This document shows positions 10,067-49,440 of a stretch of DNA of 64,000 bases, piece by piece. Positions within the stretch are counted from its first letter, which is position 1, and each line of letters starts with the position of its first letter. Location: the NCBI RefSeq assembly GCF_058153355.1, contig NZ_CM177019.1, one strand, 5' to 3'. The position numbers and the translations under genes were made by a program. The notes under the pieces were generated by a model. The model saw only the letters and a program-made list of their open reading frames with translations. It was not told where the DNA came from and made no database searches.

Positions 10067-10644
10067 AGCATGTACTGCATACCTCCTGCCTTAGAATTAT
10101 CTCCGGCTAACTCCACCAAACATGGCTGTACACAGCCAGATAAGAACGCTTGCGCGCATCTGGATATCATACCGCTGCTGGAACTGTTTCTTAATCATCC
10201 TACCTTATTCGACCTATTCGTTACTGGCCATTATGAAGGACGCAAAGTAAGCGCTTTTTATGCGTTTTGGCCTAGTTATTATCACGTTACCTTAATATTA
10301 TCAGGAACGAGTTAACGCTGCTCATAACGGTCAAACCGATACTATAAAGCCCAATAATTGAAACCTTTTCATCATGTCAGGAAGATAGTCATCCTTATGA
10401 TCTTTATATAAAAAAGCCAACCATGGGGTTGGCAAAGTGGCACAAACCAGCATAAAAGCTATGCTTTGTTTACAAATCTTCTTTGAATTAAATATATATC
10501 GTCCTGACTAAACAGAACTAAAACGGAATGAATTATTTAATCATATTACTAAATTTCATTTTGTTTAGACTCTGTTGAGATCCCTTGTTTTAAATTTCAT
10601 TTAGATAAAATTCTTAATTAAATCCTTGGGAGTCAATTATCTCT

Positions 10645-10899
10645 ATGCAAAGTCAAGGAATGTACTTTGAAATGAACCTATACGCATATTTGAATAAATA
10701 TGATAGTCGGCTTTCAGAAGAAAAACTTGCAATTGATAAGGCAGTTAGAGATTTATATCTTTGCAACGAACACGTGGATAACAAGAGCATTATACTGAAA
10801 TTGCTCTCATTTTTATCATCTGCTGATGACATTGTTGAAAAAGATATTATCAGGAATGCTTTGGAAGTGGTGCTTCTTTTTACATTAGACGATATTTAA
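10645..10899 (+). CDS. AriR/YmgB-family paralog (connector-like small protein)
   Basis: 84-aa ORF; C-terminal half NKSIILKLLSFLSSADDIVEKDIIRNALEVVLLFTLDDI aligns with Ari[40 protein letters not shown]. Confidence 0.7.
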   Translation: MQSQGMYFEMNLYAYLNKYDSRLSEEKLAIDKAVRDLYLCNEHVDNKSIILKLLSFLSSADDIVEKDIIRNALEVVLLFTLDDI

Positions 10900-11147
10900 G
10901 TCATCTCAGGAGTTTTAATACACGAAGAGTGCCCGGATACTAGCGATTATATTCATATTTAATTATTAGTGCGGGGAAAGAGATTATGCATTGGCATATT
11001 TCTCTAACGTCCGCGATAGAAAAACAACTTTAAATATAAATAAAGAACAAACCACCTTTGCATTCAACCTCATCTGAGCTGACTATAGTACAAATTATAT
11101 TGATATTCTTTATCAACATCATTGGAACAGAAGAATAAGGCGAAGAA

Positions 11148-11471
11148 ATGAAGTGTATAGTAATTGATACTGTAATACAACCTTCGTGTGGTATATATTT
11201 TTCAGTCATATGGAGCGATATAAAAATGATCATTTGGTATCGTTCAAATATCTTTCTCCCACCTGGCAGCATATTTACAGTTATTAAGTCAGGTATTATA
11301 CTCGAGGATAAAGAATATCCGATCAGTATTTTTAACGTGGCGCTATTCAACAAAAATTTATGGAATTTAATCAAAAATAGTCAAGAGTGTCCTACAGAAT
11401 CAAACAAAATTACGAATAAATGCCTGCATAAGCATTGCATTATGCAAATATGTCCACATGGTCTCAAGTAA
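11148..11471 (+). CDS. iraM: Anti-adaptor protein IraM
   Basis: 107-aa [21 protein letters not shown]...[18 protein letters not shown]; recognised as IraM. Confidence 0.88.
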
Positions 11472-11518
11472 TGGGGGTTATTTAACCTTCCCTATATGCT
11501 ATAGATAAATCTACCAAA

Positions 11519-11560
11519 AACTGCCCCTTCGTAGAGGGGCTCTATGATTTTGTTTTATTT
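11519..11560 (+). terminator. Rho-independent terminator after iraM
   Basis: GC hairpin CTGCCCC-TTCGTAG-AGGGGC followed by a T-rich tract. Confidence 0.6.
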
Positions 11561-12205
11561 GAAGGCATGGTGCTGAATGTACTCGTTGAATCCAGATTCA
11601 ACACCTGAAGCTACACTTAACCCATAATACTTGTTTCTGGTTCCTCTACCGAGTGGTCAAACAATGATATGTATGTGACGTCAGAGTTTATTTTTTTAGT
11701 GTTTAATGCTATTAATTTAACGTAGTTACCTATCTTTTTTCTACCTTCTGAACTAACCTTAGGTTTCAACGTATCCGGCAGGAGGGGCTATCCCCAATCT
11801 TAAATTTTGCTGCCCGATTTGCTCAAGCCAAAGTTTTAATTTTACAACCTATAAACCTGAGTTAAATCAACCTCATGGTGCTGTCTGTTCCCGCTGTGGA
11901 ACAAGACTCACTGCAACATCTTGCATTCCTAAACTTCGCAGAAGGCGATGGGCAAAAACTGTACTGTAATGTTATTTCGATGTCTCTTATGGTAAATAGG
12001 AGGCGTCGAGGCTAAGTGAGTAGCCTGCTTGCTTCTCAAGCCTGGATACTATCAGCATTCACGTCAGATGAAATGATGATATTTCGCGTAAGAAAGAGGC
12101 ATTTTTTTATCAACTTCACATCGGAGATGGTAATAATCCTATGGGTCCAGTCCATATGAGGGGGTCAACATACTATAAAATTCACAATCATAAATTAACT
12201 ATATA

Positions 12206-13663
12206 TCAAGAACGCCAAAAAAATCCTGAAAATAGTATAATAACAGGGTAAATTTCAAGTCGACCAAGAATCATAGCAATACACATGAGATATTTTGCAA
12301 TATCATTAAGAACACCGAATGAGGATGCGGTAGCCCCAAAACCCAGCCCCATATTATTAATGCATGCAGCGACTGTCGCAAATGATGTAAGGAAATCATA
12401 TCCCATACCGTTTAGCACCAGTATAAAAAACACTGTAAAGAAAGTATAAAGAAAAAAGAAACTCCATACAGACCTCATTACGCGGTCTGTAACAATCTTC
12501 CCTCCTACATTTACACTAAGCAATGCTCTGGGATGAGAAAGCTGATTTATTTCGTGTTTACTTTGTTTAAAAAGTATAAGAAATCTAAGTGATTTAATTC
12601 CGCCGCACGTTGAGCCTATACATCCCCCAAAAAAACTTGACAGCAGCAAAAAAACTATCGTATGTGTGGGCCAGTTTGAATAATCCTGCGTAGCTAAACC
12701 ATTATCAGTGAGCATGGAGCTAGCAAGAAAAAACGAATGAACAACACTTCCAGTTAAGTCATACATACCTATATGCCAGACCTGGAAAGAGGTAACAATA
12801 ATAACACCTGAAGCTATTAACAAAAAGAAACGAAGTTCAACATCTGTGAGTAAGGGTTTTATTGTTTTCCTGCTTATAACAACATACCAAAGAGTGAAGT
12901 TGAAAGCCGATAACAGAGAAAAAGAGCCCGCCACCAGTTCAATCAAATAATTATTGAAATAGCCGATACTCTCACTATGAGTTGAAAAACCGCCAAGAGA
13001 AACTGTAGAAAGTCCATGACAAATAGCATCAAACAAAGGCATTCCTGCAAGTCGATAACAAACAATACAAGCAATGCCTAATAAAGAATAAGTTATCCAA
13101 AGTGTCCGCGACGTATCAGCCAAGCGTGGAGTCAGTTTGTCATCCTTAAATGGCCCTGGCATTTCTGACTGATAAAGTTTTGCACCACCAATACCCAATA
13201 ATGGCAACACAGCAACTGCCAGAACAATAACCCCTAAACCGCCGATAAAATTTAATTGTGACCGGTAGAACAAATATGCCCGAGATAATGAACTGACATC
13301 ATCAATTACTGTTGCTCCTGTTGTTGTTATTCCGGAAACCCCTTCAAACAGCGCGTCAGCAAACGTTAAATTAAGCTCTGAATCAATCCATAATGGAAAT
13401 GCGCTAATAATAGAAAATAAAATCCAAAACATTACAATTATAATAAACCCATCACGGGTGCGTAATTGAATGCCAGATTTTTTAGTGGTATACCACGCTC
13501 CGCCACCAATACAAAAAAATATAACAAAAGTAATAAAAAAAACGAACAAGCTTTTTTCTTTATAAAACAATGCTACAACCATTGGTGGTAACATTGAAAG
13601 ACTATAGAGCCAGACCAAGAACCCACACATATGAGTTACAACTCTTACATGAGATGTATTCAT
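12206..13663 (-). CDS. trkG: TrkH/TrkG-family K+ uptake membrane protein (TrkG-like)
   Basis: Multi-pass membrane protein with TrkH-family motifs (SGITTTGATV, repeated G-rich pore loops); 485 aa from MNTSHV (ORF could start 18 nt upstream at 13681); very AT-rich. Confidence 0.7.
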   Translation of the reverse strand: MNTSHVRVVTHMCGFLVWLYSLSMLPPMVVALFYKEKSLFVFFITFVIFFCIGGGAWYTTKKSGIQLRTRDGFIIIVMFWILFSIISAFPLWIDSELNLTFADALFEGVSGITTTGATVIDDVSSLSRAYLFYRSQLNFIGGLGVIVLAVAVLPLLGIGGAKLYQSEMPGPFKDDKLTPRLADTSRTLWITYSLLGIACIVCYRLAGMPLFDAICHGLSTVSLGGFSTHSESIGYFNNYLIELVAGSFSLLSAFNFTLWYVVISRKTIKPLLTDVELRFFLLIASGVIIVTSFQVWHIGMYDLTGSVVHSFFLASSMLTDNGLATQDYSNWPTHTIVFLLLSSFFGGCIGSTCGGIKSLRFLILFKQSKHEINQLSHPRALLSVNVGGKIVTDRVMRSVWSFFFLYTFFTVFFILVLNGMGYDFLTSFATVAACINNMGLGFGATASSFGVLNDIAKYLMCIAMILGRLEIYPVIILFSGFFWRS

Positions 13664-14099
13664 ATCCAAATGTTCTTTCAATTATAACCACCTTACTGCA
13701 ATGTCATGATTATACTGTATAAATTTTAACTCTTCTTAGATCTTACTTCACTGGTCCTTATGAAACAATCAGCAAAATGAATCTTATTATAACACTGTTC
13801 GGTTATGTATTGTTGAGCCTTCCCGCTGGGCCTGCATCATTACAAGTCGCTCCCTATGGGGCTTTGTCGAATAAATAATTTTTCGGTAAGTATCCCCTGA
13901 GCAGGTTGTATCTTCAGGCAGTATGAACACTTTCTGGCATACCTACCTTCGTCATTATGTTCAGCGTATGCACCATGACCAAAGCCTCTGCAACCGGCCG
14001 ATCATAATCTAGCAACATCAGAGAACCTCAGAATAACTGTTTTACCCTGTACATTGCCGTTTCCGCTATTGAGCAACGATTGTAATCTTTTGTCCATTT

Positions 14100-14530
14100 T
14101 CACCGGGAATTACCCTCGGTCAATCGCTGATACGCGACTGCACAGTTACGGTCGGCATACTCACCGGACCAGTAACCCGCTCCTTTTTGGGGTGGGATGA
14201 GCGCGCTGATTTTCACACGGCGCAGCTGCTCGTAACAGAGCCGAGAGGCGTAAACTCCGTCTGCTGCTGTCCTGATTTTTTGATGGGTTTGCCGGATTAA
14301 TCCGGCTACACCTCTACATCCGTTACGCTGAATGCTGAGGTCGCCCTTGGGAAGAAGGCATTGCTGACTTATACCAATCCGAAATCACCTCCTCGTGCAA
14401 CCAGACAGGGAGGGGCCTCGGTTGATAAGAGCTCTGTTATTGATGTGCCAGTTGGTGATTCTAACTTTTGCTTTGTAACGGGACGAGCCGTGTTGGCAGA
14501 TGATGTGTGGTCTGATCCTTAAACTCAGTA
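14100..14530 (-). pseudogene. IS5-family (IS903-group) transposase remnant
   Basis: Minus-strand frame without start codon encodes ...VAGLIRQTHQKIRTAADGVYASRLCYEQLRRVKISALIPPQKGAGYWSGEYADRNCAV..., matching the C-terminal region of the IS903 transposase as I recall it; truncated by stops; no intact ORF. Confidence 0.6.
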
Positions 14531-14544
14531 AAAGTACGATTTAT

Positions 14545-14585
14545 TCAAAAAAGCCCCTCCACTATGATTTCGATTTAAGGGGCTG
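14545..14585 (-). terminator. Rho-independent terminator downstream of the 458-aa gene
   Basis: On the minus strand, AGCCCCTT...AAGGGGCT hairpin followed by TTTTTGAATAAA. Confidence 0.5.
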
Positions 14586-14615
14586 ATGATTATGTAACGC
14601 GAATTTACCGGATCC

Positions 14616-16001
<1,386 letters not shown>

Positions 16002-30959: not shown

Positions 30960-30966
30960 TTCAGCA

Positions 30967-30996
30967 AGCGGGCGGTGGTATTACCGCCCGTTTTTT
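30967..30996 (+). terminator. Rho-independent terminator of the pot operon
   Basis: GCGGGCGGTGGTATTACCGCCCG hairpin followed by TTTTTTC. Confidence 0.8.
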
Positions 30997-31063
30997 CATT
31001 TAGCAAGGATGTGGCTAATGTTGCTGTTATGGACGAGTAAACACTAAAAGAGGCAGTAAATAT

Positions 31064-31097
31064 GCCAGATGCGGCGTCAACGCCTTCTCTGGTCTAC
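31064..31097. repeat. REP-like palindromic unit just 5' of the intron
   Basis: GCCAGATGCGGCGTCAACGCCTTCTCTGGTCTAC resembles the REP consensus GCCGGATGCGGCGTGAACGCCTTATCCGGCCTAC. Confidence 0.55.
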
Positions 31098-31697
31098 GAG
31101 TGCGACAAGAAGTCGTCCAACATATTGTTTTGATAAATTATTTATATAAAACCAACTATTCCATTAGTTGTAGCCTACTGAGGCAGGCAAAGCTGGTAAC
31201 GGCTCTGTCTGAAGCCCTTGGGACAATGTAGCTTAGCAAATATTGCTTCAGTTAATCGTGAGAAAACCTGATCGCTACAAGCATCATGCGGCGAGAGCGC
31301 TAGGCTGGGCGGTATGGTTAACATAGTGAACTGTCGTTAAACGTCGTAACAGAGAACGAGCCAAAGATGCTGATAGGCTTGCACCAAAAGGTAAGGGGTA
31401 AGGCTATTCCTGTTCGTAGTGGGAATACATGGACAATAACTCCCCCGGCGGATAGACAGAACCTAACCCGTTCTTTGTATGTTGGTCGGAACTTGGTAAG
31501 CCCGAATTCTCGCCCTAGTGGCAGGGGCACCGTAAGGCAAACTGATGAGAATGCGGGTAAAGGAGGATGGAAAAAGCGAAAGCCGGACTGTAATCGTGCG
31601 GATAGAGGTTCAATATTTGCCTTAACGGGAAACCGTGCTGACTTCCATCTGGTCTTTAATTGCGAAACATCTGCGAAGGTTTCTTTGGATGACATGT

Positions 31698-33377
31698 ATG
31701 AAAATTACATCTAACAATGTAACTGCGGTCATCAACGGAAAAGGTTGGCATTCCATTAACTGGAAGAAATGCCATCAACACGTTAAAACCATACAGACAA
31801 GAATCGCAAAGGCGGCATGTAACCAGCAATGGCGTACAGTCGGTAGATTGCAACGATTGCTGGTTCGCTCATTCAGCGCCAGAGCACTGGCGGTGAAACG
31901 AGTTACGGAAAATAGCGGGCGTAAAACCCCCGGAGTTGATGGTCAAATCTGGAGTACTCCAGAATCAAAATGGGAAGCGATATTCAAACTCAGGCGAAAA
32001 GGGTACAAGCCCCTACCGCTAAAAAGAGTTTTTATACCCAAATCTAATGGCAAGAAAAGACCATTAGGAATCCCCGTCATGCTTGACAGGGCAATGCAGG
32101 CCCTGCATCTGCTGGGATTGGAGCCTGTATCGGAAACTAATGCAGATCACAACAGTTATGGTTTCAGACCAGCGCGATGTACGGCTGACGCCATTCAACA
32201 GGTATGTAATATGTATAGTTCCCGGAACGCCTCGAAATGGGTTCTGGAAGGCGATATTAAAGGATGCTTTGAACACATTAGCCACGAGTGGCTGCTTGAA
32301 AATATTCCTATGGACAAGCAAATACTCCGTAATTGGTTGAAAGCCGGGATCATCGAAAAAAGCATATTCAGCAAAACTCTCTCGGGTACACCCCAGGGAG
32401 GAATCATATCTCCAGTTCTGGCAAACATGGCCCTGGATGGACTGGAAAGACTGCTGCAAAATCGCTTTGGTCCGAAACGCTCAAAAACATTCAGGAAACA
32501 TCAGGTTCACTTCGTCCGGTATGCTGATGATTTCATCATTTCCGGAAAGTCGAAAGAACTTCTGGAGGAGAATGTTCTTCCGTTGGTGAAATCATTTCTT
32601 GCAGAAAGAGGGCTGACGTTATCCGAAGAGAAAACGGTCATCACTCACATTACTGACGGATTTGATTTCCTTGGGCAGCACGTCCGACGCTTCGGTAGAA
32701 AACTCATAATCAGACCAGCCAAGAAAAACGTTAAACAATTTCTTAGCAAGATCAGAGAGACTATTGAAGGTAACCGAACGGTTCCTGCATGGGTGCTAAT
32801 AAATCTGCTTAATCCAATCATCACCGGGTGGGCAAACTATCACCAACATGTAGCATCGGCAGAGACATTTAACTATGTCGACAACCAAATCTGGCGCAAA
32901 ATCTGGCAGTGGTGCAGAAGGAGACATCCCGGCAAAGGCCGGAGATGGATCTTCCGAAAGTACCACACGACAATAAAAATGTGTCATGGTCGATTTTATG
33001 GAGTCGATCCGGAGGGTAGGAAATATGTTCTGTCCCGGGCCAGCGACATCCATATTAATCGCTATATAAAAATAAAGGGAACGGCAAATCCATATGATCC
33101 CGAGTGGGAAACATACTTCGAAAGAAGGCTGGACTACTCATGGAAGAAATCCCAACAGGGGCAGAAAAGGATTCTCGCTATATGGAAAAGGCAAGGATCG
33201 CGCTGCCCTTTATGTGAGCAACCGATTAATCGCGATACAGGATGGAATGTTCATCATTTGCTCAAGAAATCTCTTGGCGGTAGCGATGATGTGAGCAATT
33301 TAGTCCTACTCCATCCCAACTGCCATCGACAACTACATAGTAATGACGCTGGTCTCCCACAAGGTGGAGGCTTATAA
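31698..33377 (+). CDS. Group II intron-encoded protein (reverse transcriptase / maturase / HNH endonuclease)
   Basis: RT motifs including YADD (HFVRYADDFIISG), maturase/X region, C-terminal HNH (CPLCEQPI...HHLLKKSLGGSDDVSNLVLLHPNCHRQLH); start could be 31635 or 31689. Confidence 0.88.
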   Translation: MKITSNNVTAVINGKGWHSINWKKCHQHVKTIQTRIAKAACNQQWRTVGRLQRLLVRSFSARALAVKRVTENSGRKTPGVDGQIWSTPESKWEAIFKLRRKGYKPLPLKRVFIPKSNGKKRPLGIPVMLDRAMQALHLLGLEPVSETNADHNSYGFRPARCTADAIQQVCNMYSSRNASKWVLEGDIKGCFEHISHEWLLENIPMDKQILRNWLKAGIIEKSIFSKTLSGTPQGGIISPVLANMALDGLERLLQNRFGPKRSKTFRKHQVHFVRYADDFIISGKSKELLEENVLPLVKSFLAERGLTLSEEKTVITHITDGFDFLGQHVRRFGRKLIIRPAKKNVKQFLSKIRETIEGNRTVPAWVLINLLNPIITGWANYHQHVASAETFNYVDNQIWRKIWQWCRRRHPGKGRRWIFRKYHTTIKMCHGRFYGVDPEGRKYVLSRASDIHINRYIKIKGTANPYDPEWETYFERRLDYSWKKSQQGQKRILAIWKRQGSRCPLCEQPINRDTGWNVHHLLKKSLGGSDDVSNLVLLHPNCHRQLHSNDAGLPQGGGL

Positions 33378-33383
33378 AGGCTT

Positions 33384-33417
33384 GAGCGGTATGCGGGGAA
33401 ACTCGCACGTACCGTTC
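33384..33417 (+). ncRNA. Group II intron domain V (catalytic hairpin)
   Basis: GAGCGGTATGCGGGGAAACTCGCACGTACCGTTC matches the domain V consensus (GAGC...GNRA loop...GTTC, AGC triad context). Confidence 0.7.
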
Positions 33418-33477
33418 TTAGGGGGCGGCGAGACAGTAATGAATCGCTGCTACCCGACCACCCGCAAATTCAATTCA

Positions 33478-33512
33478 TTGCGCCCCATCGCAGGCCTGAT
33501 AAGCGTAGCGCA
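33478..33512. repeat. REP element between the intron and cobB
   Basis: GCAGGCCTGATAAGCGTAGCGCATCAGGCAATG, a classic REP palindrome. Confidence 0.7.
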
Positions 33513-33531
33513 TCAGGCAATGCTTCCTGCT

Positions 33532-48128: not shown

Positions 48129-49440
<1,312 letters not shown>

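Follow-up and report, generated by a model that had tools for sequence, protein, structure and literature searches.

Group II introns of Escherichia coli, their retrohoming from plasmids to the chromosome, and ectopic sites that mimic the intron-binding sites (IBS) of a natural target are already known (PMC3522654), and T.el4h and EcI5 have been described as class IIB1 introns with CL1 reverse transcriptases (RTs) (PMC8643678). Here, we compare these systems with an intron at positions 31100-33458 of the window, the whole 64,000-nt stretch of contig NZ_CM177019.1 (assembly GCF_058153355.1) that was analysed. All parts of a group II intron are present in this element, its open reading frame (ORF) for an RT-maturase-HNH protein is intact, and it lies in the intergenic region between potD and cobB, where it interrupts no gene. 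We consider it very probable that this is an IIB1 intron of plasmid hok/srnB toxin genes that came to lie ectopically in a chromosomal repetitive extragenic palindrome (REP) by base-pair-guided retrohoming.

The intron is classed as IIB1/CL1 by the best Protein Data Bank (PDB) match of its intron-encoded protein (IEP), by identity to EcI5 and by its HNH domain. The best match is the T.el4h maturase (6ME0_C, E = 2.4e-187, residues 15-551), with LtrA (class IIA) and class IIC RTs at about 1e-39 or weaker in the same search. Because the T.el4h/Th.e.I3 ribonucleoprotein (RNP) of Thermosynechococcus (PDB 6ME0/6MEC) provides the nearest relative among proteins of solved structure, the cryo-EM model of its DNA-target recognition should apply (PMC8643678), although T.el4h has a cyanobacterial host and other targets and the likeness is one of protein comparison. 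EcI5 (E.c.I5), from plasmid pO157 of E. coli O157:H7, is of the same structural class, with the 5′ end GUGCGACA.GAAGUCG, a domain V/domain VI (DV/DVI) region nearly identical to that of the window intron, the protein layout RT-X-D-HNH in both, and the same layout of the loop that holds exon-binding site 2 (EBS2): CGUCG, a 3-nt spacer with EBS2a then A, a 5-nt EBS2, and A. Both families are borne on F-type plasmids. The EcI5 sequence used here came from a pO157-type plasmid (locus L010), whose flanks match the published critical positions C-18, C-17, A-15, A-14 and T+5. Identity of the two introns was rejected: the IEPs are 53% identical, the DNA is without megablast-level similarity (no match to any pO157), and the EcI5 target, CC.AA-CTGGT-GC-TCGAAT/C (here and below the slash marks the insertion point), is unlike that of the window intron. 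The natural EcI5 site has a U-A EBS2a pair, whereas the hok/srnB sites of the window family have no Watson-Crick pair there.

The L011-type IIB1 intron of E. coli IncF/IncI plasmids shares the architecture of the window intron and is about 66% identical to it in DNA from end to end and 60% in the IEP; its EBS1 and EBS2 matches are perfect, with a Watson-Crick EBS2a(U)-A-14 pair. It differs in its target, A-GCCGA-AG-GTGCGC/C, which is not in hok, and in being far commoner, present at full length in 321 of the 5,426 complete E. coli genomes that we surveyed. It is probably the "putative group II intron downstream of ycjA" of F33 plasmids (PMC6052338). L011-type matches (e.g., H65, H66, H81, H87) are mostly on plasmids, and some overlap chromosomal genes (GntP-family permease, zinc metallopeptidase, yegP and amino-acid permease). 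Kl.pn.I5, a different intron, and other Enterobacteriales cases of plasmid-to-chromosome retrohoming resemble the present one in their identical plasmid and chromosomal copies, intergenic location and conserved IBS (PMC3522654). In the survey of Leclercq and Cordaux (2012), the targets listed for E. coli introns are insertion sequences (IS), Rhs and terminators, with no mention of hok or REP (PMC3522654), and among open-access papers we found no precedent for group II introns associated with hok, type I toxin-antitoxin genes or REPs. The homing into hok/srnB and the REP mimicry described below appear to be new to the literature and are mildly surprising.

Boundaries and parts of the intron

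31100-33458, plus strand: complete group II intron (IIB1/CL1), 2,359 nt, with ends GUGCG and ...CUACCCGAC, fixed by the empty allele and Rfam
31152-31299, plus strand: domain I core module (Rfam group-II-D1D4-7, RF02012), 112.5 bits, E = 7e-23
31698-33377, plus strand: IEP of 559 aa (562 aa from ATG 31689), with RVT_N, RT, maturase/X and HNH
33384-33417, plus strand: domain V, with AGC triad, 2-nt bulge and GAAA tetraloop (RF00029, fold, 4 compensatory pairs)
33421-33455, plus strand: domain VI, with bulged branch-point A at 33452, the 7th nt from the 3′ end (fold, compensatory pairs)

The limits of the intron follow from alleles that lack it. An empty E. coli allele (L003) is the exact join 31099/33459 (...GGTCTACGA/CACCCGC...), without target-site duplication, and since the empty site in E. 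coli R32_14_1F shows this exact join, the 3′ end is placed at 33458. In the closest complete E. coli genomes, potD directly adjoins cobB and the spacer equals the window minus 31100-33458 (...GCCTTCTCTGGTCTACGA/CACCCGCAAATTC...). The ends fit the GUGYG/AY rule, with GUGCG at 31100 and ...GAC at 33458; the 5′ junction reads CTACGA followed by GTGCGACAAGAAGTCG, and the GTGCG comes right after a REP-like palindrome (31064-31097) plus GA. Full-length homologues are 2,357-2,363 nt long and have identical ends. An earlier note, made by a reader with the sequence alone, had given the limits as 31100-33453, with a GTGCG 5′ splice site directly after a REP-like palindrome, in a potD-cobB intergenic REP context and in neither a gene nor an IS. 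The 5′ end and the location stand, as the intron-less allele and its exact junction confirm, and the 3′ end was 5 nt short.

The catalytic RNA was detected in an Rfam scan run at gathering thresholds, in which two modules scored far above chance: the domain I match, which spans the full RF02012 model (1-151; gathering score 34), and a match to RF00029, the DV/DVI model, at 33382-33458 on the plus strand (65.5 bits, E = 1e-10). DV/DVI folds with z = -5.2 and with A33452 bulged, and shows 8 compensatory pairs across related introns, EcI5 among them. In the consensus fold of domain I, EBS1 and EBS2 are both loop segments of a canonical ID arm. The IEP frame (31635-33377) likely starts at ATG 31698 or ATG 31689, with the YADD motif at 32520-32531 and the HNH endonuclease at about 33204-33341. 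Pfam finds RVT_N, RVT_1, GIIM and HNH, and NCBIfam TIGR04416 scores 369.5 bits against a cut-off of 300. The earlier note's picture of a group II intron with catalytic RNA, a domain V hairpin just past the stop codon, and an ORF from 31698 with a YADD-bearing RT, a maturase region and a C-terminal HNH endonuclease is borne out by these searches, and domains I, V and VI, on whose folding the note had made its claim depend, were all detected.

A retron or stand-alone RT was considered and rejected: retron and defence-RT models score far below their own cut-offs (retron, 50.6 versus 235), GIIM is present, and the detection of domains I, V and VI together with the exact insertion excludes this alternative. 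The window IEP is full length compared with its relatives, and since dN/dS is 0.06-0.14, the protein is maintained by purifying selection. An exact-protein look-up of its 580-aa GTG-start form returned no record. Among relatives, the IEP of L001/L018 (E. coli plasmid) has a stop 5 codons early, from a C to T change at the equivalent of window 33360, and that of L008 (Enterobacter plasmid) is damaged, with a longest ORF of 426 aa and no ltrA annotated.

Plasmid hok/srnB genes and target pairing

By megablast, the window intron is rare: it occurs in 2 of the 5,426 complete E. coli genomes, each time on a plasmid and overlapping an annotated Hok toxin. In PLSDB, there are 20 full-length copies (77-99.6% identity), from plasmids of Escherichia, Salmonella, Citrobacter and Enterobacter; genes annotated as Hok/Gef or the overlapping DUF5431 underlie 17 of them, and another 2 are in the remnant of an srnB gene. 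There were 0 matches to the 5′ 28-mer of the intron in GTDB representatives (one genome per species) and likewise 0 in a scan of viral contigs. In silico removal of the intron restores Hok-family ORFs (...EVAAFMAYE/SGK and ...VQVTLAYE/ARK) that match the Hok family model NF007279 and Pfam HOK_GEF (PF01848). From these junctions, the family is predicted to home normally, and nearly always, into plasmid genes for Hok/Gef toxins, where the site is formed by the conserved ...(L/M)AYE codons of the C-terminal part. Hok-type home loci, on plasmids and in metagenomes, are L002, L004-L008, L016, L024, L028-L031 and L033-L040, and the home genes are hok near psiB-psiA and an srnB-type gene near finO/RepFII. 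The 68-aa ...LAYEARK protein by finO/RepFII, which the tools name only as Hok/Gef, we take to be SrnB of the F plasmid. Insertion in hok puts 2.4 kb between the 5′ portion of the hok mRNA and its 3′ portion, and full-length toxin from an intron-bearing hok would need splicing.

The target is read through the following elements of the intron and its exons.

31086-31099, plus strand: DNA target, with IBS2a T-14 at 31086, IBS2 CTCTG at 31087-31091, G-8 and T-7 at 31092-31093, and IBS1 CTACGA at 31094-31099
31342-31346 paired with 31446-31450, plus strand: helix ID(iv), CGUCG with CGGCG, from the consensus fold
31347-31355, plus strand: EBS2 loop, with spacer UAA at 31347-31349 (EBS2a is A31348), EBS2 CAGAG at 31350-31354, and A31355
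31414-31419, plus strand: EBS1 UCGUAG, in a hairpin loop of the consensus fold, complementary to CTACGA
31451-31454, plus strand: 3′ strand of the coordination loop, GAUA, with U31453 as the best EBS3 candidate
33459, plus strand: IBS3 position (+1), C, the only mismatch to the intron

In IIB-type introns, the 5′ branch of helix ID(iv) is followed by a 3-nt spacer, whose middle base is EBS2a and whose last is A, and then by a 5-nt EBS2 (PMC8643678). We transferred the positions of EBS2a and EBS2 from EcI5, in which they are experimentally defined (PMC8643678), by a column-for-column alignment (EcI5 CGUCG-UUA-ACCAG-A versus window CGUCG-UAA-CAGAG-A). The EBS/IBS pairings, which the earlier note had listed among its checks, could thus be defined: the window 5′ exon pairs at 1 + 5 + 6 = 12 of 12 positions with EBS2a, EBS2 and EBS1, and the match to the target motif is unique in the window even when 2 mismatches are allowed. 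Over 23 junctions, EBS1 and EBS2 change together with the exons they pair with; EBS1, for instance, is UCGUAA in copies with the exon TTACGA.

Two sub-lineages can be told apart by these sites. One has EBS2 CAUGA or CAUAA, EBS1 UCGUAA or UCGUAG, and hok exons T(C/T)ATG GC TTACGA, with perfect pairing at the canonical TTC-ATG-GCT-TAC-GA/A site of L028-L030. The other, to which the window intron belongs, has EBS2 CAGAG, EBS1 UCGUAG and srnB-type exons CTCTG GC CTACGA, and fits the srnB-type gene that F-like plasmids carry. EBS2a is A in the window sub-lineage and G in the sister lineage. At the natural hok/srnB sites (junctions L001, L004 and L028-L030), the EBS2a-IBS2a combination is A.A, G.T or G.A, none of them Watson-Crick, and at the three REP sites it is A-T. 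The CAUGA sub-lineage has non-hok ectopic sites in L009, L032 and L041 (GGTCATGGCTTTCGA/A, AATCATGGTTAACGA/A and GTTGATGGCTTACGA/?); none is a REP, and one adjoins another RT gene and an IS66 element.

EBS3 is expected just 3′ of helix ID(iv) (PMC3123198). The third base of the GAUA loop and the +1 base are U:A in the window family, G:C in EcI5 and G:C in L011, and from this covariation, which extends over three families only, we infer that EBS3 is U31453. The 5′ strand of the coordination loop was rejected as a candidate because it does not covary with +1. The +1 base is A in all 23 other junctions examined (22 tabulated and L014) and C in the window; the mismatch of this C to the candidate EBS3 should lower the efficiency of reverse splicing.

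Chromosomal REP sites and rival readings

31064-31097, plus strand: REP of a variant subtype, GCCAGATGCG...TCTGGTCTAC, the left half of an inverted REP pair (bacterial interspersed mosaic element, BIME)
33490-33519, inverted orientation: second REP of the BIME, parted from the first by the intron

The first REP includes the recognition sequence in the 5′ exon of the intron and is unchanged in empty allele L003, in which both REPs of the BIME pair with each other. This REP departs from the REP consensus at 4 positions, two being compensatory changes in the stem, and was missed by a consensus pattern that allowed ≤3 mismatches; its nature was established instead by genome-wide repetition (the REP-pair segment has a median of 8 matching places per E. 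coli genome) and by comparison with typical BIMEs. Typical REPs end TTATCCGGCCTACAAA and the commoner ycfZ-cobB allele reads TTATCCGGCCCACAAA, neither of which matches the EBS sites. The matching REP is a GCCAGA...TCTGG stem variant, found in the potD-cobB allele of 18 of the 5,426 complete genomes. The potD-cobB allele of the window (30960-33531; L012) is without the DUF3592 (ymfA-like) and ycfZ genes of most E. coli.

From -13 to -1, the window site and the srnB site differ solely at the unpaired -7. Over all 2,333 comparable nucleotides, the window intron shows 0 differences from L016, a copy in an srnB-type gene by finO on a plasmid contig of GCA_043012465.1, and it differs from L001 at 10 positions. 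A second chromosomal copy, L014, in the tRNA-Leu/rsmC spacer, is 1 nt from the window intron, and the corresponding empty allele (L017) reads GCCAGATGCGACGCGGGCGCGTCTTATCTGGCCTACGA/A. L019 and L020, found in the ybaL-gsk spacer at GCCAGATGCGGCGTGAACGCCTTATCTGGCCTACGA/A, are identical or nearly so to the L001/L018 plasmid intron; L019 (chromosome) and L001/L018 (plasmids) form a second donor-recipient pair, with 0 nt difference. Insertion was precise at several sites, with 0-1 nt difference between copies, and all three non-srnB sites of the CAGAG sub-lineage are REPs of one subtype, entered at one fixed position and always in one orientation. On a draft contig (L021; GCA_042204225.1, ABUXTC010000036.1), a plasmid srnB 5′ flank, the intron and a chromosomal gsk/aes 3′ flank stand together, either from plasmid integration by recombination between intron copies or as an assembly chimera.

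The REP context would be explained by sequence mimicry of the hok/srnB homing site. By our arithmetic, a site with IBS1 at 6/6, IBS2 at ≥4/5, T-14, G-8 and A+1 is expected by chance about 0.6 times per 5-Mb genome, whereas a genome has about 2 or more of them in its REPs of this subtype. Because random sequence should offer fewer than one equally good site per genome, the REP bias needs no recognition of the hairpin of the kind known from class IIC introns. Those introns, which insert after terminator or attC hairpins, likewise lie just past an intergenic palindrome at a harmless site, and REP/BIME-specific IS elements such as IS1397 also end up just after intergenic palindromes. That the intron reads the REP hairpin itself, so that REPs would be targets defined by structure and not mimics in sequence, is nonetheless most improbable. 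All three chromosomal copies do sit 2 nt past the base of such a hairpin, oriented alike, as this idea would have it, but class IIC introns are without EBS2 and an endonuclease (En) domain, whereas the window intron has the IIB apparatus (EBS2, EBS2a and En domain) and its site is explained by IBS1/IBS2 pairing. The natural hok/srnB sites, moreover, are coding sequence, the counts above predict REP dominance from sequence alone, and because IBS2 lies inside the 3′ arm of the REP, the hairpin must melt before pairing. Class IIC membership was rejected on the same features, since HNH is present and EBS2 is present and covaries; the position after a hairpin is all that the two have in common.

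A different account would hold that the EBS2a = A sub-lineage has shifted its specificity to REPs, which would then be its preferred chromosomal niche rather than an accident. The three REP sites have T-14, Watson-Crick with A31348, whereas srnB sites have A-14; the EBS2a pair is essential for the mobility of EcI5 (PMC8643678); and the 39-mer of the ybaL-gsk target is free in >5,190 of the 5,426 genomes. We regard such a shift as distinctly unlikely, since srnB remains the location of most sub-lineage members (L001, L004, L016, L018, L022-24), a chromosomal copy is found in 0 of the 5,426 complete genomes, the sister lineage is also without a Watson-Crick EBS2a pair at perfect hok sites, so that the rule is perhaps relaxed, and the sample is three sites. 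A related reading, that the CAGAG/EBS2a = A sub-lineage fits the REP subtype (T-14, (A/C)TCTG, GN, CTACGA) at least as well as srnB and that these REPs, unoccupied in nearly all E. coli, are a standing chromosomal landing pad for an IIB1 intron borne on plasmids, is doubtful but somewhat easier to credit.

Retrohoming from a plasmid copy by base pairing, the account we prefer, would proceed as follows. An RNP made from an intron copy on an F-type plasmid would reverse-splice into the variant REP of the chromosome, whose 3′ arm and tail (T-CTCTG-GT-CTACGA) pair perfectly with EBS2a, EBS2 and EBS1. The HNH/RT protein would then complete target-primed reverse transcription with the help of its En domain, leaving a precise insertion without duplication. 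These steps, including the direction from plasmid to chromosome, are modelled on the established IIB1 pathway (PMC8643678). GC skew suggests that the intron sense strand is the leading-strand template, which would fit En-dependent insertion; the skew is too weak to be relied on. The window copy would now be a selfish and probably near-neutral passenger. It looks competent, with an intact ORF and all ribozyme modules present, and it appears to keep every part required for splicing and for homing again into hok/srnB plasmids that enter the cell.

Its expression is probably low because of a terminator about 100 nt upstream and the lack of a recognisable promoter.

30966-30993, plus strand: intrinsic terminator of potD, oriented like the intron, which begins about 100 nt further on; from a terminator scan

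A promoter scan found no convincing sigma-70-like site between this terminator and 31100, and transcription of the intron can presumably come only from read-through or from a weak, unrecognised promoter. The position behind the terminator and the +1 base mismatched to the inferred EBS3 could mark the window copy as a dead relic that no longer splices or moves. This seems very unlikely to us, given the 0 differences from the plasmid copy, the full-length ORF with intact YADD and HNH (sister copy L001 has a premature stop) and the normal scores of all ribozyme modules. In RmInt1, a mismatch at IBS3 leaves excision unimpaired (PMC3123198).

Several points weigh against our account of a competent, plasmid-derived copy. 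The intron follows a terminator without a detected promoter, and its splicing, expression and mobility are predicted from sequence. The identical plasmid copy, L016, is in a different assembly, GCA_043012465.1. The 5′ flank of L014 is only 12 nt long, so that its REP context is taken from the matching empty site. The C at +1 sets the window apart from the 23 other junctions and mismatches U31453. The hok/srnB sites are without the Watson-Crick EBS2a pair that EcI5 requires for mobility (PMC8643678): either the EBS2a rule is relaxed here or, as we think unlikely though conceivable, the A variant favours REPs.

Surroundings and implications for the family

Elsewhere in the window, the flanks and flanking genes are ≤98.6% identical to any of the 5,426 complete RefSeq E. 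coli genomes; together with the absence of the intron 28-mer from GTDB representatives, this marks the source as a divergent E. coli-like lineage. G+C is about 0.41 in 1-16000 and about 0.51 elsewhere in the window, which suggests that 1-16000 may be a horizontally acquired island. A match to Rfam naRNA4, the nucleoid-associated RNA derived from REP325/BIME, lies at 49352-49427 on the minus strand (70.9 bits) and overlaps 49397-49430, the sole consensus-type REP from a pattern search of the window.

By itself, the window copy is an ordinary mobile group II intron at a harmless intergenic site. Its relatives form an enterobacterial IIB1 family at home in a post-segregational-killing gene, hok/srnB, where splicing may modulate toxin expression; if this is true, an intron family resides inside type I toxin genes and its splicing would gate toxin production. 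The REP-sited copies would provide a natural case of ectopic plasmid-to-chromosome retrohoming explained base by base, in which the EBS2a-IBS2a rule and the tolerance of an IBS3 mismatch are both put to a natural test. Targetrons could also be built on an active relative of EcI5 that prefers another target. For the chromosome, a REP subtype carried by almost all E. coli would be able to act as an intron landing site, and intron copies at such REPs could give homology for recombination between plasmid and chromosome.

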